In this document: piece by piece, positions 2,005 through 22,720 of the stretch
Position numbering within the stretch: the stretch's first letter is position 1
How the letters are laid out: every line of letters starts with the position of its first letter
From: Rickettsiales bacterium
GTDB taxonomy: Bacteria; Pseudomonadota; Alphaproteobacteria; Rickettsiales; SXRF01
Direction: 5' to 3'
NCBI GenBank assembly: GCA_947459535.1
Contig: CANHDY010000003.1
Location: forward strand, 1-50,526
DNA: 50,526 nt
Translations under genes and position numbers: made by a program
The notes under the pieces: model-generated
What the model saw: the letters and a program-made list of their open reading frames with translations, nothing else
Told to the model about the DNA's origin: nothing
Database searches by the model: none

Positions 2005-2369
2005 TTCTGGTGGATACCTCCATCTGGGTCGATCACCTACGCCGCGGTGACGAAAAACTTGCTGCGCTGCTGAATGATGGGCTGGTGCTGCTTCATTGTT
2101 TTGTTATTGGCGAGCTGGCTCTAGGTAATTTACCGCGACGCAAGCAAGTTTTAGATTCATTGCAAGATTTGCCATTAGCGAACCAAGCCAGTGATGCAGA
2201 AGTGTTTGATTTTATCAATCGCCACGCCTTGCCCGGTCTGGGCATTGGTTATGTGGATGCTCATCTGCTTGCAGCGGCGCGGTTAAACGGCGTGCGGCTA
2301 TGGACAAGGGATAAGCGCCTGCGCGAGGCGGCCATTAAGCTGGGACTTGCCTATGGGGAGGGGGTGTGA
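2001..2369 (+). CDS. vapC: VapC PIN-domain toxin
   Basis: MILVDTSIWVDH...GELALG...YVDAHLLAAA...LWTRDKRL PIN motifs. Confidence 0.93.
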   Translation: MILVDTSIWVDHLRRGDEKLAALLNDGLVLLHCFVIGELALGNLPRRKQVLDSLQDLPLANQASDAEVFDFINRHALPGLGIGYVDAHLLAAARLNGVRLWTRDKRLREAAIKLGLAYGEGV

Positions 2370-3523
2370 TGCGGCTTGGTTTGGCAGTATTGCTGCTGCT
2401 TTTTTCTGCGCAGCAGGCGGCGGCGAAATCGGCGATTTTTTTTCATCCCGATGGCATGGGGGTGAATAGCTGGCAGGCGATGCGCTACCAGACGGTGGGT
2501 GCGCAGGGGGCGCTGAATTGGGACAAGGTGACGCATATGGGCGTGTATGTCGGCACGATGGAAGACAGCCTCGTTGCCAGCTCCCACGGCGCGGCGACCA
2601 CCCATGCGTATGGTGTGAAGGTGCCGCGCGACAGTTTTGGCATCAGTCGCGGGCATCCGATTCGTTCCGCTAGCGGATTTGATGGCAGCATCACTCAGCA
2701 GGCGCGTGCCAGAGGGCTGAAAACCGCACTGGTTAATTCCGGCAGCATCATGGAGCCGGGTACGGCGGCGTTTGTGGCGCGCGCAAAAAATCGCAAAGAT
2801 CATGATGATATTGCCGATCAGGTGACCCGAAGCGGTGTGGATGTGATTCTCTCCGGCGGTGAGCGCCATTTGCTGCCAGAGGGTGTGCGTGGTCGTCATG
2901 GTATTGGTACGCGGGGCGATGGCCGCAACCTGATCGAGGAAGCACAAAAGCTTGGCTACCATGTGGTGTATACGCGCGAGGAACTTAATGAAGCGGTGAA
3001 GGCCAGGCCTGCGAAGCTGCTCGGTGTGTTTGCCGAGGAGCATAGCTTTTTTGACAAAGATGAAAGCCGGCCAACTTACCTTGAAAGCGCGCCGACCATT
3101 GCCGAGATGATGCAGGCGGCAATCACGCTCTTTAAAGGGCATGATTTTCTGATGGTGGCGGAAGAAGAGGGCACGGATAATTTTGCTAATGAGGGACGGC
3201 CGCAGGCGGTGATGGAAGCGGCGCGGCGCGCGGATGAGGCGATTGGCGTGATGCTGCGGGCGGCTGAGCAAGACCGTGGATTGTTGCTGCTGACGGTGTC
3301 GGACAGCGATGCGGGCGGCCTTCAGCTGCAAGCGGACGAGGATGGCGGCGTGCTGCTGCGACCTGTCGGCCGCGCGGATTATGCGGGCGGCATTCTTGCC
3401 CGCAGCAACCGGGTGCTGCCTGCGGTGGTGGATAATACCGCGATTTTTTCGCTGCTTGCCTGCCACCTGTTTGCTGTGTGCGGTAAACCGCAATCATCTA
3501 TCGGTGTGGTTGAACTAATCTGA
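2366..3523 (+). CDS. Alkaline phosphatase family protein (secreted)
   Basis: Signal peptide; HPDGMG metal motif; SSHGAATT nucleophile region; VDVILSGG; LLGVF; EEEGTDN. Confidence 0.85.
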   Translation: MMRLGLAVLLLLFSAQQAAAKSAIFFHPDGMGVNSWQAMRYQTVGAQGALNWDKVTHMGVYVGTMEDSLVASSHGAATTHAYGVKVPRDSFGISRGHPIRSASGFDGSITQQARARGLKTALVNSGSIMEPGTAAFVARAKNRKDHDDIADQVTRSGVDVILSGGERHLLPEGVRGRHGIGTRGDGRNLIEEAQKLGYHVVYTREELNEAVKARPAKLLGVFAEEHSFFDKDESRPTYLESAPTIAEMMQAAITLFKGHDFLMVAEEEGTDNFANEGRPQAVMEAARRADEAIGVMLRAAEQDRGLLLLTVSDSDAGGLQLQADEDGGVLLRPVGRADYAGGILARSNRVLPAVVDNTAIFSLLACHLFAVCGKPQSSIGVVELI

Positions 3524-8839: not shown

Positions 8840-9679
8840 TTAAGCGTCTGAGAGCTTACCTTTAGAAATGATCTGGTCAACAGGATCCAGCGCGCCATCG
8901 GCAATCAGGGGTTGTTTTTTTACTTCAGCATAAATCGGCGCGAAGTCCGGCTTGGTGGCCTCAAACAGATCTTCCAGCGAATCAATCACGAAGTAGGTTT
9001 TCTGCAGGTCGTCGATGCGGTAGTCGCTGCGCATGATGCGTTTTAAGTCAAATTTCAGCCGGTTAGGCTTGTCACTTTCCAAACAATAGACCGATTCGGT
9101 TTTGGAGGAAACAATGCCCGAACCGTAAATGCGAAGCCCTTCTTCCTGTTGGATGAGGCCGAATTCCACCGTAAACCAGTATAGGCGTTCGATTTCCTTA
9201 TCAGCATCCAGCGTATGCGCTTTCAGCGCTCCTTTGCCCCATTCCTGCATGTAATCGGCGTAAACCTGATGCGCGAGCATCGGCACATGGCCAAACAGAT
9301 CATGGAAAATATCCGGTTCCATCAGATAATCAATCTTCGCCGGCTCGCGAATCCACCATGTGACTGGGAACTGGCGCTTGGAGAGATGCTCCAGAAACAC
9401 CATCGGCGGCAGGTAGCCCGGCACGGTGACAAGCCGCCAGTTTACCGTTTTCTCGAGCATATCAGAAACGCGGCGCCAGTCGGGAATCACGTCGCTTTCT
9501 TTCATGCCGAGCATCTCCAGCGAGCTGAGATACTCTTTGCATGCGCGGTTTTTAAGCAGCGGATACTGGCGGTTGCTCAGGGTGCGCCACATGCCATGAT
9601 CCTCGGCGGTGTAGGCGGCCGGATCAAAGTCGAATGTGTAGTCGGCGCGCATGTTTTCCGGGTGTTCGTCTGCTCTCAT
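8840..9679 (-). CDS. phhA: Phenylalanine 4-monooxygenase
   Basis: EPDIFHDLFGHVPML, RLYWFTVEFGL. Confidence 0.96.
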   Translation of the reverse strand: MRADEHPENMRADYTFDFDPAAYTAEDHGMWRTLSNRQYPLLKNRACKEYLSSLEMLGMKESDVIPDWRRVSDMLEKTVNWRLVTVPGYLPPMVFLEHLSKRQFPVTWWIREPAKIDYLMEPDIFHDLFGHVPMLAHQVYADYMQEWGKGALKAHTLDADKEIERLYWFTVEFGLIQQEEGLRIYGSGIVSSKTESVYCLESDKPNRLKFDLKRIMRSDYRIDDLQKTYFVIDSLEDLFEATKPDFAPIYAEVKKQPLIADGALDPVDQIISKGKLSDA

Positions 9680-9699
9680 TTTTCCTCCAAACGCATTTC

Positions 9700-9795
9700 T
9701 ATGGCCAATTGCGTTGTTATCTGCGTGCTCGAATCCTTATGTAGCGCTGCTACACTGCGGTTCTCCGCGCGCAGCTGCCTAGCATTTGGCGCATA
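9700..9795. repeat. RPE-1-like long palindromic element
   Basis: Imperfect terminal inverted repeats TATGGCCAATTGC...GCATTTGGCGCATA; core GTGCTCGAATCCT...CTGCGGTTCTCCG resembles the Rickettsia RPE-1 core. Confidence 0.7.
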
Positions 9796-9843
9796 TAAAT
9801 GCGTTTGAAAAACCATGCCAGACTATATACATTAAGGCAAATT

Positions 9844-11604: not shown

Positions 11605-12318
11605 TTAGTTAAGAGACAGACCAGCCGAGCCCTGCCGGCTTTGCGCAAGGCGCTGCACAAAACTGCCGCCGCGCAGGGTTTTCCCCACCATCTCCACCAT
11701 GGAGCGCTGCAGCTCGGGTGTGTCGAAATTTTCTGCGATTTCAGCGGCGAATGTGGCGGGTACCTGCTCGCGCCCTACCTGCTCGAGCACCGCTTCCGGC
11801 AGCTTTGACATGCTGTAAGCCACCCGCAGGTTGCCTTTATCCATCTGCAGCGGCGGCAGCTTGCGCACATCCACCCTGCCGCTTTCAACTTCCTTGAACA
11901 CACGCGCGGCATCCAGCGTGTCGGTGTGGCCACGCGCCATGTTTTTGTAGGCGGCGATCACGCGCACGTCCTCCACCGAATAACCATCCGCCTCGCGCAG
12001 CACATAGGCCGCCACTTTGCCCGGGCCGGTGCCAATGGCGTTAGTGTTCACGGCGTGATCCAGCCTGTGGTGGCCATCCGCGACATAAAGCGCGCCATTC
12101 AGACGTTCATGCAGCAGCAGTGGATCGCCGTCTAAGACTGGATTCCAGCTTTCGCGGCGGATGCGATGTGCCTCGGTGACGCCTTTGCTATCGCCATGCG
12201 CGCGGAACTGATAGGCCTGCGCATCGGTCTTGATGGCCTCGGGCGCCACCATCACGAGGCTCAGCTTTTCAAGCGCAAGGCGCGGTTGTTGTAATGTAAA
12301 CATCCCCATACACGCCAT
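11605..12318 (-). CDS. ParB/Srx N-terminal-like domain protein (orphan context)
   Basis: LHERLNGALYVADGHHRL ParB-like motif; the true start is probably the ATG at 12309 or 12303. Confidence 0.7.
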   Translation of the reverse strand: MACMGMFTLQQPRLALEKLSLVMVAPEAIKTDAQAYQFRAHGDSKGVTEAHRIRRESWNPVLDGDPLLLHERLNGALYVADGHHRLDHAVNTNAIGTGPGKVAAYVLREADGYSVEDVRVIAAYKNMARGHTDTLDAARVFKEVESGRVDVRKLPPLQMDKGNLRVAYSMSKLPEAVLEQVGREQVPATFAAEIAENFDTPELQRSMVEMVGKTLRGGSFVQRLAQSRQGSAGLSLN

Positions 12319-12371
12319 TCTAGCGTGCAGGAAGCGAGTAGCCCAGCATTCAAATATGAAGTTTTGATGAC
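12317..12371 (-). promoter_or_regulatory. Pho-box-like direct repeat plus -10 element
   Basis: Minus strand GTCAT-CAAAAC-TTCAT (12371-12356), then GC-TAGAAT (TAGAAT at 12322-12317). Confidence 0.55.
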
Positions 12372-12482
12372 GAATATAGCCCTGAAATGGTAAAGTGGAT
12401 GATATTGATTTTTAAACATTAACTGAAAATAAACCATGGCTGTCTATAGTCATAGCACCACAAAACGATAGTGAGCTAATTT

Positions 12483-13094
12483 ATGGCATTAACGACTGTG
12501 CCCAAGAATGTCCGCGCTAGTGATCGGCTGGATCTTGGAAATCAGGAAGAAGAAGGCTTTGTCGTACGCAAACGCTTTTTATCGATCCGTAAAATGGCGC
12601 AGCTCTGCCTCAGCGGTGTTATTATTGTGCTGGGTGTCGTGATTCTGCTCAGGAATGATACACTAGTTGGTTCGCTGCTGTGTGTCGTTGTTGGCAGCAT
12701 GTTGCTGTATCTCGGACGCGTTATTGAAAAGCAGCAGATGATAATCAACGCGACAGAATTCATGAATGCGGTATATTCGTCTGCATTGTGTAAAGGCTAC
12801 ACGTTCTCTTTCATTGTACGATCAAAGGGCGCGATCATTTATCTTGATCGCGGATTTCAAGAGCTTTTTCCTGATTTCATAGTGCAGCCTGATCGCGAGC
12901 TATCAACGCTTTGCGATATATATCAGTTTAAGCCCGAGATTGCCGCAAGGCTCACTGATCATGTTCGTAGCGGCACTGAAGGTGCGCTCGATTTTGATCT
13001 CGCAGCTGGATCTAACCGCGCACAGCAAGTCATTCGCGTCACATGCGAACCGATCGCCCGTCCGAAGGGCTACGTGCTGGTGCGCGGTAAGTAG
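12483..13094 (+). CDS. Hypothetical membrane protein (two TM helices plus a PAS-like cytoplasmic region)
   Basis: Two hydrophobic helices, then FIVRSKGAIIYLDRGFQELF and a terminal beta strand GYVLVRG reminiscent of PAS folds. Confidence 0.6.
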   Translation: MALTTVPKNVRASDRLDLGNQEEEGFVVRKRFLSIRKMAQLCLSGVIIVLGVVILLRNDTLVGSLLCVVVGSMLLYLGRVIEKQQMIINATEFMNAVYSSALCKGYTFSFIVRSKGAIIYLDRGFQELFPDFIVQPDRELSTLCDIYQFKPEIAARLTDHVRSGTEGALDFDLAAGSNRAQQVIRVTCEPIARPKGYVLVRGK

Positions 13095-13097
13095 AGC

Positions 13098-13343
13098 TTA
13101 AGCAGCCGCTTTTGTCAGCATCGAATAAAGCTCGTCTTTAAGCGCGAGGCGCTGCTTTTTGAATTTTTCCGCCAGAATGTCGGAGACCTTGTCGATCTCC
13201 TGCTCAATGCGGTGCACCTGCTTGCATACGGCTTCATATTCATCAAATAGCCGGGCGAAGTGGGCATCATTTATTTTCAGCGCGTGAATCTGCTCTTTGA
13301 ACTCGGGAAATTCCTGAAGCAGTGAATAAGATTCGTTGAACAT
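13098..13343 (-). CDS. YdcH/DUF465 family protein
   Basis: EFPEFKEQIHALK..DAHFARLFDEY...KKQRLALKDELY. Confidence 0.88.
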   Translation of the reverse strand: MFNESYSLLQEFPEFKEQIHALKINDAHFARLFDEYEAVCKQVHRIEQEIDKVSDILAEKFKKQRLALKDELYSMLTKAAA

Positions 13344-13398
13344 GAAAAGCTCCTTTTCGTTGACTCAGGCAACATTAGCAGCATGTGTCATGATAGCC

Positions 13399-13412
13399 TT
13401 GATTCATATCAA
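13399..13412. promoter_or_regulatory. FNR/FixK box upstream of the ydcH-like gene
   Basis: Perfect TTGAT-TCAT-ATCAA, with a -10-like GCTAATGT on the minus strand about 30 nt downstream of the box centre (class II spacing). Confidence 0.7.
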
Positions 13413-14179
13413 GCGCCAGCAATAACAAGGTGAGCGCCAATTTTCTGATATTCATCAAAGAGTTTGGGGGTGCGGTTTTCGCCCGCCCTGCAGATGGCCT
13501 CATCCATGTTAATGGTGCCAAGCAGCGCTACCCCCAGCTCGCGTGCGAGTTTTTCGCCGCCGCCGCTGCCAAACATGCTGCCCGACATATTTTCCACCAC
13601 ACCCAGCACCGGCACATGCACTTTGCTAAACATCTGGGCGCATTTGCGCGCATCCAGCAGCGCGACTTCCTGCGGCGTGGTGACGATGATCACGCCGGAG
13701 AGCGGCACTTGCTGCGCCATGCTTAAATGAATATCGCCAGTGCCTGGTGGCATATCCACCAGCAGTACATCGAGAGATGCATCCTTCGTGCCCCAGCGTG
13801 TCATACGCAGCAGCTGGTTCAGTGTTTTGGTAATCATGGGCCCGCGCAGCACCGCCGCACTATCACCAATAATGAAACCGATCGAATTGCACACGATGCC
13901 GGCCGCCTCAAGCGGTATCATCTGCTCTTTAAATTCCGGCTGGCCGGAAAGCCCCATCAGGTAGGGAATGCTGGGGCCGTAAATATCCGCATCCAGAATG
14001 CCAACGCGCTTTCCCGCCGCCGAAAGCGCCATGGCCAGGTTCACTGTGGTGGTTGATTTGCCCACGCCGCCCTTGCCAGACGCCACCGCGATGACTCTGC
14101 CCACAAAAGGTAGCGGCTGGCGCACCCAGAGTGCTGGTTTTTTTAGCGGCGTTTCATCCTGAATCATCGTTGATGTCAT
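13409..14179 (-). CDS. mrp: Mrp/NBP35 (ApbC) family ATPase
   Basis: ASGKGGVGKST, DADIYGPS, DMPPGTGD, VTTPQ, VENMS. Confidence 0.92.
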   Translation of the reverse strand: MTSTMIQDETPLKKPALWVRQPLPFVGRVIAVASGKGGVGKSTTTVNLAMALSAAGKRVGILDADIYGPSIPYLMGLSGQPEFKEQMIPLEAAGIVCNSIGFIIGDSAAVLRGPMITKTLNQLLRMTRWGTKDASLDVLLVDMPPGTGDIHLSMAQQVPLSGVIIVTTPQEVALLDARKCAQMFSKVHVPVLGVVENMSGSMFGSGGGEKLARELGVALLGTINMDEAICRAGENRTPKLFDEYQKIGAHLVIAGA

Positions 14180-14267
14180 GGTCTTGCAATCTAGCTGTTT
14201 CCTCCTATATAGTTGCCCGAGCGAAAAAAACCAGTACCGCCTTCAGGCGGGAACCAGTGGAGGGTGC

Positions 14268-15395
14268 ATGGCGTGGGATAATCAGGGTCCGTGGGGCAAA
14301 CCAGGCGGCAGCGGTGGCATGGGTGGTGGTCCACGCCGGCCGATGGGCGGCGGTGGCGGCGGTAAGCCGCAAGGGCCGGATCTTGATGAGCTGCTGCGCA
14401 AAAGCCGCGAGCAGTGGAAAACCATGTTTCCCCAAGATGGCAATGGCGGCGCGAAAGGCCTCGTGCTGCTGCTGATTATCGTGGTGCTGCTGTGGCTGTC
14501 GTCGGGCGTGTATTTTGTGAAAGCCGATGAACAGGGCGTGGTGCTTCGTTTTGGCGAATATCATCGCACCACCGGCTCAGGCCTTAACTATCACCTGCCT
14601 TATCCATTTGAAGGCGTGCTGACACCGAAGGTGACAGCCGTGAACCGCGTGGAGGTTGGCTATCGCTCCGGATCAGCGCGCACAAACCGCGAAGCGACGG
14701 CGATTCCCGAGGAAAGCCTGATGCTGACTGGCGATGAAAATATCGTCGATATCACTTTCGAGGTGCAGTGGAAAATCCGCGAAGCACCAGATTTCCTGTT
14801 TAATATCAGAAACCCCGAAGACACGGTGAAAGCTGTTTCTGAAAGCGCGATGCGCGAGGTGATCGGCCAGAGCCAGATTGCTACCGTGCTTACCGCTGGC
14901 CGCGAGGATGTGGCAATGAAAACCAGAACCCTCATCCAGCAAACGCTGGACGATTACAAAGCTGGTATTGAGATCATCGCGGTGAACCTCCGTGATGTGA
15001 ATCCGCCGGATCAGGTGCGGGCGGCGTTTCTTGACGTGCAATCGGCGCGTGCCGACATGCAGACCTCAATCAATCAAGCTGAAACCTATCGCAGCGATAT
15101 CGTCCCACGTGCTCGCGGTGAGGCAGAAAAGTTGGTACTTGACGCCCAAGCCTATAAACAGGAAGTGATTGCTAGAGCGCAGGGGGAAGCCTCGCGTTTC
15201 TCCGCTGTCTATGAGGAATTCAAAATGGCGCGTGATGTGACCAAACAACGCATTTATCTGGAAACAATGGAAGATATTCTTTCTGGCATGAACAAGGTGA
15301 TTATTGATGAAAAAGGTGCGGGCGGCGTGGTGCCGTACCTGCCGCTTGATTCGCTCAAAGCCAAACAGCCAGCAGCTCAGGAGGTGAGGCCATGA
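14268..15395 (+). CDS. hflK: FtsH protease modulator HflK
   Basis: MAWD..GPWG N-terminus, PDLDELLR, SPFH domain, MLTGDENIV. Confidence 0.96.
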   Translation: MAWDNQGPWGKPGGSGGMGGGPRRPMGGGGGGKPQGPDLDELLRKSREQWKTMFPQDGNGGAKGLVLLLIIVVLLWLSSGVYFVKADEQGVVLRFGEYHRTTGSGLNYHLPYPFEGVLTPKVTAVNRVEVGYRSGSARTNREATAIPEESLMLTGDENIVDITFEVQWKIREAPDFLFNIRNPEDTVKAVSESAMREVIGQSQIATVLTAGREDVAMKTRTLIQQTLDDYKAGIEIIAVNLRDVNPPDQVRAAFLDVQSARADMQTSINQAETYRSDIVPRARGEAEKLVLDAQAYKQEVIARAQGEASRFSAVYEEFKMARDVTKQRIYLETMEDILSGMNKVIIDEKGAGGVVPYLPLDSLKAKQPAAQEVRP

Positions 15396-15535
15396 CAACC
15401 CAAACTTTCCTCCCCCTCTCAGGGGGAGGATCAAGGTGGGGGTTACTTCTTACCTTCATCACACAATCTATAACCCTCACCCCCGCCCTCTCCCTGAAAG
15501 GGAGAGGGAGTATCATGTTGGAGGCCAAGCCATGA
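15392..15535 (+). CDS. 47-aa repeat-derived mini-ORF overlapping the hflK stop and hflC start
   Basis: Manual translation: MTTQTFLPLSGGGSRWGLLLTFITQSITLTPALSLKGRGSIMLEAKP*; ATGA overlaps at both ends. Confidence 0.45.
   Translation: MTTQTFLPLSGGGSRWGLLLTFITQSITLTPALSLKGRGSIMLEAKP
15408..15510. repeat. REP-like double-hairpin element (CTCCCCC..GGGGGAG family)
   Basis: TCCTCCCCCTCTCAGGGGGAGGA..GGTGGGGGT / ACCCTCACC..CCCTCTCCCTGAAAGGGAGAGGG. Confidence 0.85.
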
Positions 15536-16449
15536 AGTGGTTAAGTGTCGCAATTATTGCTTTTTTTATCGGGCTGTTTGTGCTGTTTAACTCGCTGTTT
15601 GTGGTGCGCCAGACGGAGCAGGCGCTGGTGCTACAATTCGGCAAGCCGATTCGCGTGGAGCAGGATCCTGGCCTTGAGTTCAAGGTGCCTTTTTTTCAGA
15701 ATGTTGAGTTTTACGACCGCCGTCTGCTCGACTTTGATGCCGAGCCGAAAGAAGTCACCGCGGCTGACCAGAAACGCCTGGTAGTCGATGCGTTTGTACG
15801 TTACCGCATCACCGATCCGCTGCTGTTTAAACAAACGGTGGGCAGTGAGATCAATATGCGCAGCCGCCTGAACTCGATTCTGGAAGCGAGCCTACGTCAG
15901 GTGATTGGTCGGGTGCCGCTGTCTGATGTGATTTCTGAACAGCGTGACGATATTATGGAGCGCATCCGCGTGCTGGTAAACGCGCAGGCTTCGGGTGCAC
16001 AGCTCGATACGGAGGGTAACCTGATCAAGGGCCAGTCGCGCGGGTTTGGTGTGGATGTGGTGGATGTGCGCATCATGCGCGCGGATCTGCCGAGGGAAAA
16101 TTCAGAAACGATCTATAAACGGATGCAAACCGAGCGCGAGCGCGAGGCAAAAGAATTCCGTGCCAAAGGTGCGGAAGAAGCACAAAAGATTCGTTCGCAG
16201 GCCGATAAAGAACGCACCATTCTTTTAGCGGAAGCGAAAAAAACCGCTGAGATCACGCGCGGTCAGGGCGATTCGCAGGCGACCAAGATTTTTGCTGATT
16301 CATTTGGCAAGGACGAAGAGTTTTTTAAATTCTACCGTACCATGCAGGCCTACCGCAAAACCCTTGGCAAAGACGACACTACCATGGTGCTCTCGCCTGA
16401 TAGTGACTTCCTGAAATATATTGAGCGTGGCTCGCAGGGCGGAAGGTAG
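15532..16449 (+). CDS. hflC: FtsH protease modulator HflC
   Basis: QALVLQFG, DQKRLVVD, RMQTERERE, LSPDSDFLKY. Confidence 0.96.
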   Translation: MKWLSVAIIAFFIGLFVLFNSLFVVRQTEQALVLQFGKPIRVEQDPGLEFKVPFFQNVEFYDRRLLDFDAEPKEVTAADQKRLVVDAFVRYRITDPLLFKQTVGSEINMRSRLNSILEASLRQVIGRVPLSDVISEQRDDIMERIRVLVNAQASGAQLDTEGNLIKGQSRGFGVDVVDVRIMRADLPRENSETIYKRMQTEREREAKEFRAKGAEEAQKIRSQADKERTILLAEAKKTAEITRGQGDSQATKIFADSFGKDEEFFKFYRTMQAYRKTLGKDDTTMVLSPDSDFLKYIERGSQGGR

Positions 16450-16534
16450 CGATCATCCCGTTGATGACATATCGGTAACTTGAATTTTAAGTGATGTGGT
16501 ACTAGCTATCACATCACTTCAACGTGAGGTTCCT

Positions 16535-17938
16535 ATGCGCCGCCTAATTTCTGCTGTGGTTATTACCTTGGCACTTGCTCACCCCTCCTATGCTCAGGCG
16601 CCTGTGCCGCAAGCTGGTTTTGCTGACCTGGTGGAAAAGCTCTCGCCAGCGGTAGTGAATATTTCCACCACCCAGAAGGTGAAAAACCCGCCCATGATGT
16701 TTGGCATGCCATTTGAGGGGCTGCCAAATAGCCCGGAGATGGAGCCGTTTCGTGAATTTTTTGATCGCTTTGGCCAGGGTATGAAGCAAGCCCCCGAGCG
16801 CGAGGCAACCTCGCTGGGCAGCGGCTTTGTGATCGATCCTAAGGGCTATGTTATCACCAACAACCATGTGGTGGAGCAGGCTGAGGAAATCACCGTGATT
16901 TTTTCGGATAATACCAAATACAAGGCCACCATTGTCGGGCGCGACAAAAAAACCGATCTGGCGCTGCTTAAAATTGATGCCAAAAAAGACCTGCCATTTG
17001 CTGTGATGGGTGATTCGGATACCATGCGTGTCGGCGACTGGGTGATTGCCATCGGCAACCCGTTCGGCCTTGGCGGATCGGTCACGCAGGGGATTATTTC
17101 GGCCAGGCAACGATCCATCAATGCCGGGCCTTTCGACGACTTTCTGCAAACTGACGCGCCGATCAACCGCGGTAATTCCGGCGGCCCATTATTTAACACC
17201 AAGGGCGAGGTGATTGGCATCAATACCGCTATTTTTTCGCCCTCCGGCGGTTCGGTGGGGATTGGTTTTGCCATTCCTACGGCGCTCGCAAAGCCAGTGG
17301 TCGAGCAGCTCAAGGCCAGCGGCAAGGTGACGCGCGGCTGGCTCGGCGTGAAGATTCAGGAGGTTTCGGAAGAAATCGCTAACAGCGTCGGGCTGGATAA
17401 GCAGATGGGTGCGCTGGTACTGGATGTAAGCAAAGGCAGTCCGGCCGATAAGGTTGGTATTCAGGCGGGCGATGTCATCACCCATTTCGGCGGCAAGGAA
17501 ATCAAGGAAATGAAAAACCTGCCAAGGCTGGTCGCGGAAGCGCCGATTGGTAAACCGGCTGAGATCCGTTTCTGGCGCTCGGGCAAGGCCATGAGCGGTA
17601 TGATCACCGTTGGTGAGCTGAAGGACGAGGCGGAGAAGGCGGGCGCGGGTAGCAAAGGCTCGCCAGCTGCGCCGGCAGCAGGTGAAGTGGTGCTGGGCAT
17701 GCGGCTGGTGCAGGGCGACGGTGAGCTTCAGGTGGCTGAGGTGGAAGCTGGCTCCGAGGCCGCAAAGCGCGGCGTGAGGGAAGGGGATGTGATTCGCGAG
17801 GTGGGCGGCGAAAAAGTCACCAGCACCTCCGGCCTCAAGCAAGCCATGCAAAGCGCCAAGAAGGCGGGACGTAAATTTGCGCTGGTTCGTATCTCACGCG
17901 GCAGTGAAGAGGCATTTATCCCGCTGCCGGTGGAGTAG
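16535..17938 (+). CDS. degP: DegP/DegQ (HtrA) serine protease with PDZ domains
   Basis: TNNHVV, DLALLK and GNSGGPL catalytic triad; two PDZ domains. Confidence 0.95.
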   Translation: MRRLISAVVITLALAHPSYAQAPVPQAGFADLVEKLSPAVVNISTTQKVKNPPMMFGMPFEGLPNSPEMEPFREFFDRFGQGMKQAPEREATSLGSGFVIDPKGYVITNNHVVEQAEEITVIFSDNTKYKATIVGRDKKTDLALLKIDAKKDLPFAVMGDSDTMRVGDWVIAIGNPFGLGGSVTQGIISARQRSINAGPFDDFLQTDAPINRGNSGGPLFNTKGEVIGINTAIFSPSGGSVGIGFAIPTALAKPVVEQLKASGKVTRGWLGVKIQEVSEEIANSVGLDKQMGALVLDVSKGSPADKVGIQAGDVITHFGGKEIKEMKNLPRLVAEAPIGKPAEIRFWRSGKAMSGMITVGELKDEAEKAGAGSKGSPAAPAAGEVVLGMRLVQGDGELQVAEVEAGSEAAKRGVREGDVIREVGGEKVTSTSGLKQAMQSAKKAGRKFALVRISRGSEEAFIPLPVE

Positions 17939-17963
17939 AGCTCTCCAAGAGGGTCAAATAAGC

Positions 17964-18494
17964 TTACGCTCTGGCGGCGCCTTGGGATAGTGCTTTAGCG
18001 CGCTCTGCATCAATCTTGGCGACAAAAGACTTCACATCATCGAGGCGTTGATTTGAGTCCTGAAGCTTCTGTTCGAGCGCAGTGTTGTGATTGGTCAATT
18101 CATCAAATTGCTCTTTGCCAGCTTTAGCTTTTTTGACACCACGCACAACACCCACAATAGTACCAACAGCTGCAAGTGCAGCTATACCTATTGCCGCGCC
18201 TAAACCGGTTTTTGCAGCTCGAACACCGATATTGCCGTGGGTTGCTTCTGAAATCGCGGTTGCTGCCATGTCAAGCGAGCTTAGTTTTGCAGCATTCTTG
18301 CCATTAATGACAACATGGCTACCAAAGTCTTCCATTGCCGCGGTTGCTTTTTTGGGAGCAGTAAGATTGCCTGCCAAGCCACCCACAACTGCACCGGTAG
18401 CAGCGCCTATCGCGCTGTCTAAGTTTGCATAACCAAGAGCGCTAGCTACTGTTCCTGGCCCTTTATATTCCGGTTTTTTGTCGTTGCTCGCCAT
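17964..18494 (-). CDS. Orphan protein with glycine-zipper-like hydrophobic segments and a coiled coil
   Basis: AIGAATGAVVGGLAG and GLGAAIGIAALAAVGTIVGVV; C-terminal heptads; AGGGGA RBS. Confidence 0.8.
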   Translation of the reverse strand: MASNDKKPEYKGPGTVASALGYANLDSAIGAATGAVVGGLAGNLTAPKKATAAMEDFGSHVVINGKNAAKLSSLDMAATAISEATHGNIGVRAAKTGLGAAIGIAALAAVGTIVGVVRGVKKAKAGKEQFDELTNHNTALEQKLQDSNQRLDDVKSFVAKIDAERAKALSQGAARA

Positions 18495-18526
18495 GTTTAT
18501 TCCCCTGTAAATTTGATTATTATCCG

Positions 18527-18591
18527 ATCTTAACAGATTGAGGGGGGGGGTAAATTGCTAAAATATGAAGATTTAATGACGGTCAGATGAC
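18527..18591 (-). promoter_or_regulatory. Pho-box-like triple direct repeat, G9 tract and -10 element
   Basis: Minus-strand half-sites GTCAT (18591-18587), GTCAT (18580-18576) and TTCAT (18569-18565) at an 11-bp period; TAAGAT at 18532-18527. Confidence 0.55.
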
Positions 18592-19494
18592 ATACATTAA
18601 AGCGCTTAAATCACAATGATTTAGCTGGTTTTTCGCCTGCGCGCGCACGTTTGGTTTGGCGTGGTAGGCAATGCCGAGGCCTGCGGCGAGCAGCATGGGC
18701 AGGTCGTTCGCCCCGTCGCCGATGGCGATAGCTTCAGCCGGAGAGATGCTAAGTTTGGTGCATCCCTCATTCAGCGCGGCGAGTTTGGCATTTTTATCGA
18801 GAATGGGGGGGATGACGCGGCCACTCAATACTCCCCCCCAGCTTGCGGGGGAGGTTGGGTGGGGGTGAGTTTTGCGTAACTTGTCACCCCCCTCTTGATC
18901 TCCCCCCGCAAGCGGGAGGAGAATTTCTAATTGATTACTCCGCTCCTCATCAAACCCGAGCCGCGCTTTGATGCGCTGGGTATAAAAGCTGAAGCCGCCA
19001 GAGACGAGCATGGTGTAAATACCAGCATCTTTTAGCGCTTTCATCAGCGCCTCGGCGCCGGGCATGAGCCGCACGCGCTCATCGTAAACTTCTTCCAGGG
19101 CTGATTCGGGCAGGCCAGCAAGGAGGCCTACACGCTCTTTCAGCGCCTGCTCAAAATCCAGCTCGCCATTCATCGCGCGCGCCGTGATGGCTTCGATTTT
19201 ATCCCTGAGGCCGACATAATCCGCCAGCTCATCAAGGCATTCATTCTCGATGATGGTCGATTCCATGTCCGCAACGAACAGCTTATAGCGCGGGCGGGGA
19301 TGGGGCTGGATAATGATGTCAGATGACAGATGACGGATGACGGATGACGAATAGTTCTCGACGATCAAACGACAAGCGATGCCTGCTTCCAGCCAGCAAA
19401 CCTCTTGCGCCTTAAGCTCGCGCGCGGCGCTATCCACCTCTTGCGCTGTCAGTGGGTTTTGTTTGGGGTTGGCAAGCAGGGTGATGGAAAACAT
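18583..19494 (-). CDS. serB: Phosphoserine phosphatase, carrying a palindrome insertion
   Basis: ADMESTII, AMNGELDF, LVSGGF and GDGANDLPML HAD motifs. Confidence 0.94.
   Translation of the reverse strand: MFSITLLANPKQNPLTAQEVDSAARELKAQEVCWLEAGIACRLIVENYSSSVIRHLSSDIIIQPHPRPRYKLFVADMESTIIENECLDELADYVGLRDKIEAITARAMNGELDFEQALKERVGLLAGLPESALEEVYDERVRLMPGAEALMKALKDAGIYTMLVSGGFSFYTQRIKARLGFDEERSNQLEILLPLAGGDQEGGDKLRKTHPHPTSPASWGGVLSGRVIPPILDKNAKLAALNEGCTKLSISPAEAIAIGDGANDLPMLLAAGLGIAYHAKPNVRAQAKNQLNHCDLSALMYVI
18831..18921. repeat. REP-like double hairpin inserted in frame in serB
   Basis: CTCCCCCCCAGCTTGCGGGGGAG...CTCCCCCCGCAAGCGGGAGGAG; encodes about LLPLAGGDQEGGDKLRKTHPHPTSPASWGG. Confidence 0.88.
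19320..19354. repeat. Heptamer tandem repeat C(A/G)GATGA x4 inside serB
   Basis: CAGATGA CAGATGA CGGATGA CGGATGA CGAATAG. Confidence 0.85.
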
Positions 19495-19500
19495 AATTTT

Positions 19501-19569
19501 ATCATTCCCGCATTAGCGAGAATCCTGTAAATGGTTTAGCTCAGGATGCCTGCTTTCGCAGGCATGACA
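19501..19569. repeat. RPE-like double hairpin between divergent serB and miaA
   Basis: ATCATTCCCGCATTAGCGAGAATCC...GGATGCCTGCTTTCGCAGGCATGACA; matches the GTCATTCCCGCGAAAGCGGGAATCC repeat type. Confidence 0.8.
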
Positions 19570-19578
19570 AGGAAAAAA

Positions 19579-20430
19579 ATGAAAAAAATTCATATCATCG
19601 CCGGGCCAACCGCCAGCGGTAAGTCAGCACGAGCACTGGCGCTGGCGGAAAGCACGGGCGGCGTGATCATCAACGCGGATTCGCAGCAGCTTTTTAAAGA
19701 CCTGCCGATTCTGACCGCGCGCCCAACCAAGCAGGACGAAGCGCGCGCACCACACAAGCTTTACGGTCTCTTGAACGCCAATGAATCACCCTCGGCCGGG
19801 AAATGGCTGAAATGGGCGAAGATGGAAATTGACTGGGCGCTGGGTGAGGGGCGCCCTGCGATTGTGGTGGGAGGCACTGGACTATATCTGAGGGCGCTCA
19901 CCCAGGGGCTGGCCGAAATTCCTGAGATTGATGCCGCTGTGACCAACCAAGCGGCCAATGATTATGAGGCGATGGGAAAAAGCGCTTTTGAGGAGCGGCT
20001 GAAAGTAGTCGACCCAGAGTTTTTCAAGCGACTTAAGGTTTATGATAAGCAGCGGCTGATTCGCGCCTATGCGGTCTGGCTTGGCTCTGGCAAATCACTA
20101 ACCTACTGGCAGCAGCAGGAGCAAAAACCGTTTTATTCTGCGGATTATTACGAAATCGAAAAGATAGAGGTGGAGCGCGAAGAACTTTATCGCCGCTGTA
20201 ACCAACGTTTTGATAAAATGATAGAAATGGGCGCAGTAGAGGAAGTGCGTGAATTTATCGAAAGCCGCCAGCTGGCTGCTGCTGGTTTGGAGAAGATTAT
20301 CGGCTTCAGGGAGCTTTCTGCCTATCTGCGCGGCGAGCTGGCTCTTGAACAAGCAATTGATAAAGCAAAACAAATGACCAGAAACTACGCGAAGCGCCAG
20401 ATGACCTGGTTTCGGCATCAATTGTCATGA
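19579..20430 (+). CDS. miaA: tRNA dimethylallyltransferase
   Basis: IAGPTASGKS, INADSQQ, VGGTGLY, TRNYAKRQMTWF. Confidence 0.97.
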   Translation: MKKIHIIAGPTASGKSARALALAESTGGVIINADSQQLFKDLPILTARPTKQDEARAPHKLYGLLNANESPSAGKWLKWAKMEIDWALGEGRPAIVVGGTGLYLRALTQGLAEIPEIDAAVTNQAANDYEAMGKSAFEERLKVVDPEFFKRLKVYDKQRLIRAYAVWLGSGKSLTYWQQQEQKPFYSADYYEIEKIEVEREELYRRCNQRFDKMIEMGAVEEVREFIESRQLAAAGLEKIIGFRELSAYLRGELALEQAIDKAKQMTRNYAKRQMTWFRHQLS

Positions 20431-20476
20431 ATTCGTCACTTACTTGTTGTGCAGTATTAATTTATGCTGCTACATC
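20424..20476 (+). promoter_or_regulatory. Pho-box-like direct repeat plus -10 element
   Basis: GTCAT-GAATTC-GTCAC (20424-20439), then GCTACATC (20469-20476), which fits the Caulobacter-type GCTANAWC -10 consensus. Confidence 0.5.
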
Positions 20477-20512
20477 AAATGTAAATTTTAATAAACTAAA
20501 ATGTGTAAGTGA

Positions 20513-22720
20513 ATGACAAAACAAGACAAGAAAGACCCCATGCTTCCATGGCATGTGGTGTTTGTGGCTAGTACAACACCGGAAAAACTCAGGGATTTTC
20601 AGGTTGCTGCTAAGGCTAAAGGGTGGCCAATTCTTTTTGCGGATATCCGTGAGATTATAGGCGTTTATCACAACGTGGACGAAAACGGCAAAGATTTTAA
20701 GGTCAATGCTGGCTTGAAGCGTAGCGTGATTGAACGCTTTGTTGATGTGCTGCGTAAGGATGACAACAATCTCAAGCAGTGGTGCCAGAATAACGGGTTG
20801 GAGTTTGATCGTGCCCGGGTGCATTTCATGACCGAGGATTCGGGTTTTAGTGCACCAAAGGAGATATGGGACAAAATTGATAAGGACGGAATCCCTGACT
20901 ACGTTCAGAAAAGAATTGATGAATCGAGTTCCCGCAGGCTTGGCGGGCCAGGTGTGGAGACTGGCCCTGTGGTAAGTGCGCTTCTGGGCGCGGGTAATCT
21001 GATGGGGCGTATTTTGCAGGCGGCTGGACCAGACATTCAGCGCGTTCATATCGAGGCGAAACAATATAGCACCGTCGCGGTGCTTTCGCTGAACCACCCG
21101 AACCACACCTTCAAACCACTAACGGTAGAGGTTGCCAGCTATATTCGTCCTAATTCTGACGATGGCCCGCGTGTCAGTAATTATAATTATGTTCGCTCTA
21201 AGGAAAAGCCATATAGTTCGGCTGCTGCATTGGGTGAGCAATATATTTCCAATTACAGCCCGCGCGCAAAGATTGTTGATTATCTGGCCGAGGATGTCTG
21301 CAAGCTCAGCCCTGCTCAGAAAATAAAAACACCCCTTAAACGCCAACCCGCCAAGCAGTTCAAAGCGGCATTGCTTGGAGCAGATCGCGATGAAAAGGAC
21401 TCGCTGCGCCAGTTTCTGATGGAAGCAGGTAAACGAGATCAGATGGCGCCGACAGAAATCGTATCATTTGATGCTTCCCATCAGCCTATTGAGGTCGGAT
21501 CTACCTCAATGCGGGCGAATGCCGCGTTATCATACGTGGAAAATCTACTGAGTGAGACTAACGCAGTATTATTGCCACCGTCTGATATTGAAAACTCGGC
21601 CGATCCATCATTCGATCGTGCAAAGCAGCTTTATGACCTGATGTCGCTCATTGTGGCCAAGCAGCTGAACCCGCGCGATAGCAACAAGCCTATCATTATC
21701 ATGAACCACAAGGGTGCCTGGGATGATGCAGTGAGGCTCCATTATGACCTCGCGAACATGTCGCTGACGAAGGAGCACTCTATTTTACTACCCGTGGATG
21801 TTAATGGTAATGGTGCTGCTGTTAAGGCTCATTCCAATAGCTATTTTCATGTGCTTAGCGGCGATGACCAGCGCAAAATCGAAAAAGCTGCAAGCTATCT
21901 GCTGTCGCAGGCAAGGCAGGGCTTTGTATCGGTAGAAAGTTCAGAGCAGCCAACCATGCAAAAGGGCACTTCGCCCGATAAAGATCAGCGATTCAAGGTG
22001 GCGGTATTTTGTTCCGCCAGCTGCGAAAATGCCACACTTAATGCATCACTGAAGGACTTATCATACCGCCTTTCAAAAGATGGTTATGGCATCATTTATG
22101 GCGGGGGTGACCGCTACACAATGGGCGCGGTACTGGATGGTGTTAGGCGGCATCGCGATGAGCTGATAAAGCACGGTATGACGGCAGATGCGGCTAAAGA
22201 AGCAACCTATATCGCTGGCATAAGCACCGATTTAATCGCCGCGGCTGAAACAGAAAAAGGTGAGCTTTCGCCAGACCTTAACTATCGCGAGCTGACCCGC
22301 GATATTTATGACCGTATGGCCAAAATGCTGGTACCTTCTGATGCCATTGTCATCGCACCGGGTGGTGCTGGAACCGTGCAGGAATGGATGGCGGCGCTTA
22401 TGCTGCGAAAACTCGAGCCAGAGAGTTTTGCCGGTAAGCCTATTGTGGTCTATAATCCCCAGCTTCTTAAAGAAAAACCGGGTCTTGCAGAACATGAGAA
22501 AAAAGTCTGGGACGGCCTGCTTAAGCACATGCTTGGCGAAAAGGACTATCGCCTTTTAACCTCGGCAGAGCCAACGATGCAGGCGGCGCGTCTCAGACGT
22601 AGTCGTGAGCTGGGCGTCTATGTGGAGACGCAGGTCGAAGATGTTCAGCAGCGTCTTGATCAGCTTGCTCGTGAAAAAAATACTGCACACAGGCAGAGTG
22701 CTGGCGTTGCTATCGGATAA
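20513..22720 (+). CDS. Ham1/ITPase-like domain fused to a degenerate and an intact LOG (SLOG) domain
   Basis: N-terminal: VASTTPEKLRDF, DENGKDFKVNAGLK, TEDSGF, GGPGVET, NYSPR. Middle: YDLMSL..KQL...KPIIIMN..GAWD. C-terminal: VAVFCSAS, IIYGGG, DRMAKM..SDAIVIAPGGAGTVQE, KPIVVYN. Confidence 0.8.
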   Translation: MTKQDKKDPMLPWHVVFVASTTPEKLRDFQVAAKAKGWPILFADIREIIGVYHNVDENGKDFKVNAGLKRSVIERFVDVLRKDDNNLKQWCQNNGLEFDRARVHFMTEDSGFSAPKEIWDKIDKDGIPDYVQKRIDESSSRRLGGPGVETGPVVSALLGAGNLMGRILQAAGPDIQRVHIEAKQYSTVAVLSLNHPNHTFKPLTVEVASYIRPNSDDGPRVSNYNYVRSKEKPYSSAAALGEQYISNYSPRAKIVDYLAEDVCKLSPAQKIKTPLKRQPAKQFKAALLGADRDEKDSLRQFLMEAGKRDQMAPTEIVSFDASHQPIEVGSTSMRANAALSYVENLLSETNAVLLPPSDIENSADPSFDRAKQLYDLMSLIVAKQLNPRDSNKPIIIMNHKGAWDDAVRLHYDLANMSLTKEHSILLPVDVNGNGAAVKAHSNSYFHVLSGDDQRKIEKAASYLLSQARQGFVSVESSEQPTMQKGTSPDKDQRFKVAVFCSASCENATLNASLKDLSYRLSKDGYGIIYGGGDRYTMGAVLDGVRRHRDELIKHGMTADAAKEATYIAGISTDLIAAAETEKGELSPDLNYRELTRDIYDRMAKMLVPSDAIVIAPGGAGTVQEWMAALMLRKLEPESFAGKPIVVYNPQLLKEKPGLAEHEKKVWDGLLKHMLGEKDYRLLTSAEPTMQAARLRRSRELGVYVETQVEDVQQRLDQLAREKNTAHRQSAGVAIG

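Follow-up and report, generated by a model that had tools for sequence, protein, structure and literature searches.

Why do three genes of a Rickettsiales bacterium carry the same short direct repeat in front of them, and which regulator might read it? The window analyzed here is the whole stretch of 50,526 nt from contig CANHDY010000003.1 (assembly GCA_947459535.1; GTDB SXRF01). A sequence-only reading of this DNA had described three orphan genes, each preceded by an 11-bp-period repeat resembling the PhoB pho box and by a -10-like hexamer, and had suggested that one response regulator activates them. All three boxes were recovered by direct reading and by pattern search, in sense orientation upstream of the named open reading frames (ORFs). 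They are members of a genome-wide set of about 70 PhoB-like sites found in a group of uncultured bacteria.

Three boxes and their target genes

The features are as follows. Box cores (16 nt, as originally described) were read directly from the sequence, and bit scores refer to a position matrix with a 22-nt window.

12371-12356, minus strand: box 1 core GTCATCAAAACTTCAT, sense, upstream of 11605-12318
12353-12374, minus strand: box 1, 22-nt matrix window TTCGTCATCAAAACTTCATATT, 27.2 bits
12322-12317, minus strand: -10-like TAGAAT, starting 34 nt past box 1
11605-12318, minus strand: target gene 1 (237 aa), assigned to neither a Pfam nor an NCBIfam family
18580-18565, minus strand: box 2 core GTCATTAAATCTTCAT, sense, upstream of 17964-18494
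18591-18576, minus strand: third half-site of box 2, in phase, GTCATCTGACCGTCAT (direct reading)
18562-18594, minus strand: box 2, three half-sites in 11-bp phase, 25.0 and 17.3 bits
18542-18550, minus strand: run of nine C between box 2 and the -10
18532-18527, minus strand: -10-like TAAGAT, starting 33 nt past box 2
17964-18494, minus strand: target gene 2 (176 aa), assigned to neither a Pfam nor an NCBIfam family
17937-18585, no strand: block comprising gene 2 with its promoter plus the two promoter-proximal box 2 half-sites (blastn)
20424-20439, plus strand: box 3 core GTCATGAATTCGTCAC, sense, upstream of 20513-22720
20421-20442, plus strand: box 3, matrix window ATTGTCATGAATTCGTCACTTA, 22.7 bits
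20471-20476, plus strand: originally proposed -10 candidate TACATC, weak, starting 32 nt past box 3
20513-22720, plus strand: target gene 3, 735 aa, C-terminal LOG-type domain

Box 1 is identical in the closest relative (G002), and a variant, TTTGTCATGAAAATTTCATATT, occupies the orthologous place in a second relative (G003). Because TAGAAT overlaps the first ATG of the ORF, gene 1 probably has a short leader or none and starts at the in-frame ATG at 12309 or 12303. Its product carries an invariant DGHHR motif, and the predicted model (pLDDT 82.5) is similar to ParB, Noc, and KorB in their N-terminal and helical domains (E 5e-5 and TMq 0.44 against 7nfu_A). Homologues were found in 11 of the 18 family genomes and in none of the 12 other families searched. 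Of 11 gene 1 loci in other genomes, 9 have a box in sense orientation that scores 20 bits or more, within flanks that cannot be aligned; of the other two, one has no box and one has no upstream DNA.

Box 2 consists of GTCAT (18591-18587), GTCAT (18580-18576), and TTCAT (18569-18565), and it overlaps the serB stop codon. Its TAAGAT is followed by AGGGGA and then by the ATG at 18494. The C run has counterparts of 7 to 9 C at the same place in six more promoters of the genome. In front of unrelated genes, these seven promoters all carry a common module of roughly 55 nt (box, TTGyTT, run of 7 to 9 C, ATTTGT, TAAGAT), which an eighth promoter carries without the C run. Gene 2 yielded no usable Atlas match, and its only homologue among 30 relatives is in G003 (44% identity), where the orthologous promoter has the box ATTGTCATTAAATCTTAATATA (21.9 bits) and TATGAT at +34 but no C run. 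A blastn comparison of positions 17200-19400 located the block 17937-18585 in the window genome and in G003; it is absent from G002, whose degP-serB gap at this place is 12 nt.

Box 3 overlaps the miaA stop codon (20428-20430), and long homologues of gene 3 in other genomes have a sense-oriented upstream box of 13-23 bits in 7 of 7 cases. Hexamers at +34, +33, and +32 are all present as described, but TACATC makes a poor -10, and TATTAA at 20455 and TAAATT at 20482 are alternative candidates. Gene 3 matches Pfam PF03641 (E 1.4e-12) and TIGR00730. The term orphan therefore suits gene 2 and should be dropped for gene 1, with its ParB/Noc-like predicted fold, and for gene 3, with its LOG domain.

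A genome-wide set of oriented and phased sites

Because the motif was picked after the three regions had been viewed, their likeness could reflect a chance resemblance of AT-rich upstream DNA, a reading to which we assign a negligible probability and which the following controls refute. The original pattern matches 4 times in the window; 100 dinucleotide shuffles average 0.36 matches, and none of them reached 4. Across the genome, 44 matches occur at spacing N6 versus 15, 16, 10, 16, and 18 at N3, N5, N8, N11, and N12, control spacings that were chosen to be off codon phase and to lack the heptamer repeat. Crude coding calls cover 90.7% of the genome, and 33 of the 44 N6 matches lie outside them. 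The remaining 9.3%, counted as non-coding, holds 73 of the 80 matrix sites of at least 14 bits. With shuffled spacers, 1.3 such non-coding sites are obtained for the whole genome rather than 63 in one count and 73 in another, an enrichment of about 50-fold. A strict 17-mer of the box is present in 18 of 18 family genomes at 6-25 copies each, and its reversed control has 0 copies in all 31 genomes searched.

This matrix scan, which the sequence-only reading had called for, also revealed a strong bias toward gene starts. Thirty-seven sites face only a gene start lying no more than 200 nt away, and 6 face only away from one (p 1.6e-6); 15 more are in divergent spacers and 15 neither face a start nor point away. 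No further pattern match was found before housekeeping genes of the window by pattern and matrix search, as had been noted at the outset.

The consensus of the genome-wide matrix sites is yTGTCAY-mAAAny-TTCAY. T precedes the first half-site in 44 of 58 sites, and three spacer columns are A in 52, 52, and 50 of the 58 (free columns biased). The second half-site is mostly TTCAY, with T (44 sites) or G (13 sites) as its first base (n=58). Neighboring boxes are 11 or 22 nt apart in 10 of 20 pairs. Starts of TANNNT downstream of these 58 boxes peak at +11 (5 sites), +23 (10 sites), and +33/34 (16 sites), such that the proposed distance of 32-34 nt is the commonest, +33/34 being the largest peak, of several phased offsets rather than the only one.

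Targets without families and the virB2 promoter

No Pfam family (E 0.001) was assigned to 52 of 60 genes downstream of boxes, compared with 5 of another 43 genes in the window (Fisher p 1e-14), although some short targets (64-87 aa) may be false genes given the crude gene calls. The targets are patchy in occurrence and fast-evolving, and BLASTP among 63 of them found one related pair. Boxes are nevertheless retained before fast-diverging homologues in other genera.

Among the Pfam-positive exceptions are the virB2 pilin gene and virB4; virB6, virB8, and virB9 lie downstream, and VirD4 is present in the genome. Of all the boxes, the one in the promoter of the virB2 pilin operon is the best conserved. 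In each of the 15 relatives examined it reads aCTGTCAAAAAAyTGTCACAAT, 7 nt, and then TAnnnT, which places a near-perfect Pho box 10 nt upstream of the -10, even though VirB4 is only 36-56% identical across these relatives. Because a VirB-type type IV secretion operon has its promoters among the targets, the earlier remark that the scattered genes are possibly effectors gains substance.

Candidate regulators and known systems

The likeness to the PhoB pho box is close. Like the E. coli Pho box, the sites have TGTCA half-sites that recur with an 11-bp period and a 4-nt spacer rich in A/T, they form in-phase arrays as at E. coli PhoB promoters, and the geometry of the virB2 promoter is textbook PhoB. 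The PhoB protein of this genome (L001) passes the PhoB equivalog model (333.7 bits; cut-off 296.2), its DNA-binding domain is closest to DNA-bound E. coli PhoB (1GXP, E 4.9e-27), and its recognition helix (RTVDVHVRRLRK) differs from that of E. coli (RTVDVHIRRLRK) by one residue. Among 121 genomes of the order, at least three strict box matches occur in 34 of 73 genomes with PhoB and in 0 of 48 without, a profile that is statistically weak because kin are not independent. Moreover, the PhoB-less genomes are for the most part small and could be missing further regulators as well, and many PhoB genomes have few or no boxes (e.g., families f12 and f14). No PhoR passes its model (best 179.6 bits; cut-off 334.2), which reaches that cut-off in just one of 14 control genomes.

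We therefore weighed several explanations. The one we favor, and consider reasonably probable, is that a PhoB-type regulator drives a regulon of type IV secretion and candidate effectors. An ordinary phosphate-starvation regulon, whose targets would be unrecognized phosphate-scavenging or phosphorus-sparing functions without a link to secretion, seems to us improbable. PhoB and a Pho-box-like motif are indeed present, and Pho regulons are large and variable, with some clear members lacking boxes, according to the available part of PMC4415409. The comparison of orphan genes with pst and pho genes, the sharpest of the tests, nonetheless speaks against it. Boxes precede the orphans, but of the 24 genomes that have DNA upstream of pstS, 23 show no sense-oriented box of at least 7 bits within 500 nt of it, and the sole exception is a 9.1-bit box in a PhoB-less genome. 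Since pstS is the most conserved PhoB target, this is not a classical phosphate regulon. No box was found near phoB, pstB, or the phoU-like gene of the window genome or at the alkaline phosphatase gene of the window (2366-3523). Targets that are mutually unrelated, patchy, fast-evolving, and mostly without Pfam families, and a best-conserved box that belongs to the pilin operon, are also at odds with it.

The boxless pstS and phoB are odd for PhoB as well, and the same regulon could instead be read by a different OmpR-family regulator, which we judge unlikely but the more serious contender. Six genes encode an OmpR-type DNA-binding domain, any of which could bind 11-bp direct repeats. The candidates are two CopR/CusR-like paralogues with adjacent kinases (C8:29686-30357 and C26:12529-13230), an OmpR-like protein (C15:18549-19235), and a receiver-less winged-helix protein that evolves fast (C26:20817-21365). 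All 18 family genomes have the CopR-like protein at 79-100% identity, but homologues of it with at least 56% identity were not found in G025 and G030, which have 9 and 5 strict boxes. The winged-helix protein is just 41-92% identical within the genus, whereas the box is invariant. In addition, the helices NVIDVHISRLRQ, SIDVQITRLRK, and HTLETHIYRLRG are unlike the TGTCA-reading helix of PhoB, and no candidate gene has a box upstream. Quite implausible, in our estimation, is a self-spreading repeat or portable promoter cassette without a dedicated regulator. The 55-nt module would suit such a cassette, and so would the fact that close relatives have or lack gene 2 together with its promoter and most of its box, as a single block. 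Outside the subfamily with that module, however, only the 18-22 nt box is shared, within flanks that cannot be aligned, boxes are kept at orthologous promoters across genera while their variable positions change, and orientation and helical phasing to -10 hexamers fit a protein-binding promoter element.

The proposal of one response regulator is thus supported, and each computational check that it had called for turned out in its favor. For the PhoB-driven regulon, we infer PhoB binding, activation as opposed to repression, the signal, and secretion of the targets. The boxes are predicted to be bound by an OmpR/PhoB-family response regulator as a tandem dimer, most likely by the single PhoB of the genome (C15:23615-24340). 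The regulon would span about 60-70 promoters, comprising one VirB-type operon (virB2-virB4-virB6-virB8-virB9) and dozens of scattered, fast-evolving genes without known families as candidate secreted effectors. Phosphorylated PhoB would bind head-to-tail on two 11-bp units (TGTCAY, an A-rich minor-groove stretch, and TTCAY) and recruit sigma-70 RNA polymerase to promoters without a good -35. At virB2 the box would act from 10 nt before the -10, the distance known from E. coli pho promoters. In the case of the three window promoters, where the box is two helical turns further upstream and the -10 is at +32 to +34, activation might involve extra weak in-phase half-sites or an upstream polymerase contact.

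The distance of 32-34 nt in the window, versus 10 nt in classical PhoB promoters, counts against the PhoB reading, as does the lack of an exact fit of any of the three window boxes to the published degenerate PHO consensus; E. coli work suggests strict box spacing (PMC10294691, in the portion available). PHO boxes are described as two 11-nt direct repeats with the core CTGTCAT and head-to-tail binding (PMC4415409, in part) and as located around -35 (PMC8601176, in excerpt). The same excerpt gives E. coli phoA as CTGTCATAAAGTTGTCAC, 10 nt, and TATAGT, and the virB2 box has the same distance and likewise replaces the -35. Most sites here are farther from the -10 by one or two helical turns, and their second half-site is mostly TTCAY rather than GTCAY. 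Unlike in the E. coli Pho regulon, pstS, phoB, and alkaline phosphatase are boxless, with a secretion system and functionally uncharacterized genes as the targets.

The PmrA half-site is of the TTAA type, and Zusman et al. in 2007 reportedly used the PmrA site for effector prediction. In Legionella pneumophila as well as in Coxiella burnetii, PmrA has a tandem-repeat site at Icm/Dot genes and about 40 scattered effector genes (PMC6989116, as far as its accessible text goes). A winged-helix response regulator, predicted here, and a tandem-repeat site at secretion genes plus scattered genes are common to both systems. The half-site, the bacterial class, and the secretion type (IVB there, VirB-type IVA here) differ, and PmrA models score far below cut-off in the window genome. 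The ChvI-type BvrR and BatR of Brucella and Bartonella directly control the virB2/virB1 promoter (PMC9491525 and PMC5381568, each in part), pairing an alphaproteobacterial OmpR-family regulator (predicted here) with a host-interaction type IV secretion promoter. In those partial sources the BatR site is about 300 nt upstream of virB2, and the motif of BvrR, an element of 14 bp, differs from a Pho box. Among the six OmpR-type genes of the window genome, none stood out as a ChvI-type regulator.

A further likeness concerns the C run, although the sole orthologue compared (G003) lacks it. In Bordetella fim promoters a stretch of C separates the BvgA site from the -10, and seven promoters here likewise have a homopolymeric run of 7-9 C in the promoter spacer, 3' of the putative response-regulator site.

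An 11-bp-period direct repeat in the window and genome-wide

The sequence-only reading had proposed that three orphan genes share an 11-bp-period direct repeat in sense orientation, followed after 34, 33, and 32 nt, respectively, by a -10-like hexamer. By reading the sequence directly, we found each box at the position and on the strand claimed, each hexamer at its distance, and the third half-site of box 2 in 11-bp phase. The features concerned are as follows.

12371-12356, minus strand: box 1 (16-nt core), with the hexamer TAGAAT at 12322-12317
18580-18565, minus strand: box 2 (16-nt core), with the hexamer TAAGAT at 18532-18527
20424-20439, plus strand: box 3 (16-nt core), with the hexamer TACATC at 20471-20476
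11605-12318, minus strand: gene 1, the ORF downstream of box 1
17964-18494, minus strand: gene 2, the ORF downstream of box 2
20513-22720, plus strand: gene 3, the ORF downstream of box 3

The hexamer of box 3, TACATC, is a weak -10 element. The pattern GTCAT-N6-KTCAY occurs four times in the window (the three boxes and an extra pair in box 2), and 100 dinucleotide shuffles of the window gave a mean of 0.36 matches, with no shuffle reaching four. As had been supposed, none of the housekeeping genes of the window is preceded by a copy of the box, according to both pattern and matrix searches.

Across the assembly (1.89 Mb, 130 contigs), in which the window is contig C3, the same pattern was matched 44 times at the N6 spacing versus 15, 16, 10, 16, and 18 times at N3, N5, N8, N11, and N12, control spacings that are off codon phase and free of a heptamer repeat. 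Our own coding calls are crude and span 90.7% of the genome; 33 of the 44 matches fall outside them. Separately, GTCAT recurs genome-wide at spacings of 2, 9, and 16 (period 7), where a heptamer tandem repeat raises the counts.

The columns left free by the pattern are strongly biased, giving the consensus (G/A)yTGTCAY-mAAAny-TTCAY-AT over 58 sites. A matrix scan of upstream regions had been suggested as a check, and a 22-nt position matrix with a spacer background returned 63 non-coding matches of at least 14 bits versus 1.3 in shuffled spacers (71 versus 3.1 at 12 bits). This one-step matrix replaced an iterative matrix with a genome-wide background, which had drifted to AT-rich spacer composition. 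Of the 80 genome matches that score at least 14 bits, 73 are non-coding. Thirty-seven of these face a gene start only (within 200 nt), 6 face away only, and 15 lie in divergent spacers, while the remaining 15 have no called gene nearby and are found with short or atypical ORFs or at contig ends.

Ten of the 20 neighboring site pairs are separated by 11 or 22 nt and are thus in helical phase. Likewise, TANNNT hexamers downstream of the box start most often at +11 (5 of 58 sites), +23 (10 sites), and +33/34 (16 sites). The 32- to 34-nt offset described from the window is therefore present and is the commonest, but it is one of a phased series rather than a single fixed distance. Finally, the strict 17-mer TGTCAYNAAANNTTCAY has 16 copies in this genome and 6 to 25 in each of 18 genomes of the family, and its reversed control has none in all 31 genomes searched.

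Genes downstream of the box

Downstream of the 73 non-coding sites are 63 distinct ORFs of at least 60 aa, and the first 60 by site score were scanned, which left out three weak-site ORFs on contigs C10, C17, and C11. No Pfam family was found at an E value of 0.001 for 50 of 57 targets, or for 52 of 60 when the three window genes are counted, versus 5 of 43 other window genes (Fisher p 1e-14; ORF 9215-9808, a likely shadow of 8840-9679, was excluded from the 43). Of the window genes, genes 1 and 2 have no Pfam family, whereas gene 3 has a LOG domain. The association of the box with orphan genes, as drawn from three cases, extends to the genome. The named exceptions are a VirB2 pilin, VirB4, an M23 peptidase, DUF1150, DUF7790, and an ABC permease with a weak site; two more Pfam hits fell far under Pfam's own cut-offs. 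Gene duplication was rejected as the source of the shared promoters, because BLASTP at 1e-4 identified only one related pair among the 63 ORFs.

On contig C84, virB2 and virB4, both with boxes, open a cluster that also holds virB6, virB8, and virB9. The genome also encodes VirD4, and a second cluster (virB3-virB4-virB6, contig C48) carries no box. One type of site thus precedes genes for a secretion machine (virB2 and virB4) and many scattered genes unrelated in sequence. It is very probable that a response-regulator site defines a regulon of secretion and orphan genes.

The strongest case of conservation is the virB2 promoter. All 15 relatives examined carry aCTGTCAAAAAAyTGTCACAAT, then 7 nt, and then a TAnnnT hexamer with TG upstream, such that the -10 element starts at +11 in every one of them, after a 10-nt gap. 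The adjacent VirB4 protein is only 36 to 56% identical in the relatives (52% in the closest relative, G002, and 56% in the related genome G003), and other proteins compared with G002 are 92 to 100% identical. We also observed that the box-controlled VirB4 (C84:3602-6491; loci L138-L153) is hypervariable and its promoter box almost invariant over 13 genera. VirB4 was found in all 31 genomes searched, with two or more copies in 28; this duplication is reminiscent of the Rickettsiales rvh system.

Sequence features offer only hints that the targets are substrates of the secretion system. Positive charge at the C terminus is a feature of some type IV substrates. C-terminal net charge did not differ between the 60 targets and 1,744 other proteins, and the K+R content at the C terminus was slightly lower in the targets. 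An N-terminal hydrophobic stretch, used as a crude signal-peptide proxy, also did not distinguish targets from other proteins. Gly-Arg-Gly (GRG) occurs within the last 8 residues of 9 of the 60 targets versus 8 of the 1,744 other proteins, a pattern that was spotted post hoc. One of the 8 non-target GRG proteins is encoded beside a box gene, as is one of three further proteins with a Gly-Lys-Gly tail.

The three window genes and a C-run promoter module

Homologues of gene 1 are present in 11 of 18 genomes of the family, and 12 other families have none. They share an invariant DGHHR motif, and the gene 1 model (pLDDT 82.5) most closely resembles Noc, ParB, and KorB in their N-terminal and helical parts. 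A sense box of at least 20 bits lies upstream of the homologue at 9 of 11 loci in other genomes; of the other two loci, one lacks a box and one lacks upstream DNA. Five of the nine boxes are within 150 nt and four are 899 to 964 nt away, and at these four loci the homology covers the C-terminal half of a 524- to 668-aa frame. Gene 3 encodes a LOG domain and has long homologues in several genera, all seven of which carry a box (13 to 23 bits). At homologous loci, the flanks of the boxes cannot be aligned, and the box alone persists.

Gene 2 was found only in G003 (44% identity) and had no usable ESM Atlas match. In G002, the gene and promoter are absent, as are two half-sites of box 2, the promoter-proximal ones, and the degP-serB gap is 12 nt. 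Box 2 is also one of seven promoters that share a module of about 55 nt, consisting of the box, N10, a TTGyTT that resembles a -35 element, A, 7 to 9 C residues, ATTTGT, and TAAGAT. An eighth promoter has the module without the C run. Their locations by contig of this genome and position are listed below.

C3, 18562: module with C run
C27, 19774: module with C run
C68, 1122: module with C run
C62, 2676: module with C run
C62, 3311: module with C run
C40, 16163: module with C run
C33, 1261: module with C run
C35, 931: module without C run

The runs comprise 7, 8, 8, 9, 9, 9, and 9 C residues, and the sole orthologue compared, from G003, has no C run. In phase-variable promoters with a homopolymeric tract, tract length varies from strain to strain or inside a population and alters the promoter spacing. 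Here, the C run sets the spacing between the -35 and -10 elements at 15 to 16 nt, so these promoters could be tuned by slippage. The genes that follow the module encode small, hydrophilic, unrelated proteins; the module represents a portable, candidate phase-variable promoter family.

Two further observations concern the neighborhood of these genes. A 203-aa, membrane-looking protein of no family is encoded at 12483-13094, divergently from gene 1, and the box faces away from it. In addition, serB (18583-19494) contains a segment of roughly 110 nt (18823-18934) in which C and G form long runs; it splits the Pfam and NCBIfam match in two, and this genome and G002 do not align there. The segment resembles a G/C-rich palindromic repeat that is translated as part of the gene.

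Pho box likeness and the candidate regulator

The PHO box is described in PMC4415409 as two 11-nt direct repeats, each with a 7-nt core, CTGTCAT, and about 4 less conserved A/T-rich bases, which are bound head to tail. PHO boxes lie around -35, with 10 nt between the box and the -10 element at phoA (PMC8601176). The resemblance to the pho box had been noted in the window, and column counts over 58 sites agree with the two-repeat 11-nt definition. The element is predicted to work like a Pho box. Scanning the genome with the published degenerate consensus TKTMAYHWWHYNKTMAY gave 22 matches (20 non-coding) versus 2 for its reverse, and the window boxes are each one or two letters off. The Pho-box position, about 10 nt before the -10 element, is seen at the virB2 promoter of all 15 genomes examined and at 5 of the 58 sites; the window boxes, at 32 to 34 nt from their -10 candidates, are two helical turns beyond it.

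Elsewhere, the Pho box is a site for phosphorylated PhoB and mediates induction when phosphate is limiting. It also precedes genes for phosphate uptake and scavenging there, an association that is absent here. The comparison of orphans with pstS/pho genes that had been proposed came out on one side only, with boxes before family-less targets but not before pstS/pho genes. In 23 of 24 genomes, pstS has no sense box of at least 7 bits (pstS was located with PF12849; TIGR00975 found none), and there is no box near phoB, pstB, or a phoU-like gene. Alkaline phosphatase is a classical Pho target elsewhere; the window's gene of this family (2366-3523), which follows a PIN-domain gene, has no box near it or upstream.

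Six genes in the genome encode an OmpR-type DNA-binding domain.

C15:23615-24340: PhoB, above the equivalog cut-off
CtrA, above the cut-off
CopR/CusR-like protein, first of two paralogues
CopR/CusR-like protein, second of two paralogues
OmpR-like protein
C26:20817-21365: 182-aa winged-helix protein without a normal receiver

PhoB scores 333.7 bits with TIGR02154 (cut-off 296.2), and its DNA-binding domain is nearest to that of Escherichia coli PhoB crystallized on DNA (1GXP). Its recognition helix, RTVDVH(V/I)RRLRK, is of the TGTCA-reading type, with one Ile/Val change relative to 1GXP, and the helices of the other five regulators differ. In E. coli PhoB, the C-terminal domain is able to bind in the unphosphorylated state. 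The PhoB helix residues that touch bases were reportedly identified by Blanco et al. in 2002. The order was profiled over 121 genomes with a completeness of 90% or higher. Of the 73 that encode PhoB, 34 have at least three strict boxes, versus 0 of the 48 that lack it (maximum 2), with the caveat that kin are not independent. Many genomes that carry PhoB are without boxes. For PhoR, the best match to TIGR02966 was 179.6 bits, under a cut-off that the model clears in only one of 14 control genomes. Regarding autoregulation, no box of at least 6 bits was present in the spacers adjoining the six regulator genes, except downstream of ctrA, facing the next gene.

Weighing the evidence for and against PhoB, we consider PhoB the probable regulator of the box. 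Another OmpR-type regulator could bind the box instead, but this appears unlikely. CopR-like homologues of at least 56% identity were not found in the related genomes G025 and G030, which have nine and five boxes, respectively, and the receiver-less 182-aa protein (identity within the genus: 92, 59, and 41%) diverges too quickly to be matched to a site that does not vary. Its gene is 8 to 18 kb from phoB in the eleven relatives that have both on one contig. CtrA was set aside as the regulator: its gene is present in box-free genomes (38% identity matches), and its known site is of the TTAA type.

Taken jointly, these data allow a tentative reading for several families of this uncultured alphaproteobacterial order. 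PhoB, uncoupled from phosphate uptake, may act as the master switch of a hypervariable VirB-type system and a fast-turnover effector arsenal. Each effector gene would move as a compact cassette under a Pho-box promoter of its own; in some cassettes, C runs would permit on/off switching, and many of the products would share a Gly-Arg-Gly tail as a possible export signal. The present analysis adds the secretion-system link, the lack of boxes at pstS, and the profile across the order. If the reading is true, the box would be a ready tool to list the effectors of unculturable organisms. A single short DNA signal would then suffice to catalog what is secreted by a bacterial group known only from metagenomes: about 60 genes per genome that are unnamed in databases, along with the predicted export machine. 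It would also show clearly how a deeply conserved regulator of nutrition, or the site that it binds, can be co-opted for cell-cell interaction.

In the literature searched on the Pho box or PhoB with type IV secretion effectors, no such regulon is described. Closest in logic is the PmrA regulon of Legionella and Coxiella, described as comprising about 40 effector genes (PMC6989116), although its regulator, site, and secretion system all differ from those here. The control of virB by BvrR/BatR, as presented in PMC9491525 and PMC5381568, is also similar, but again regulator, site, and secretion system differ. If our reading holds, the regulon would parallel that of PmrA, with an independent origin in another bacterial class and under another regulator.

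At C1:35369-35423, three phased boxes (offsets of 22 and 11 nt), whose two half-sites both read GTCA, precede the gene for a 463-aa protein without a Pfam family. No other array in the genome is as pstS-like, yet the gene concerned is not a phosphate gene.
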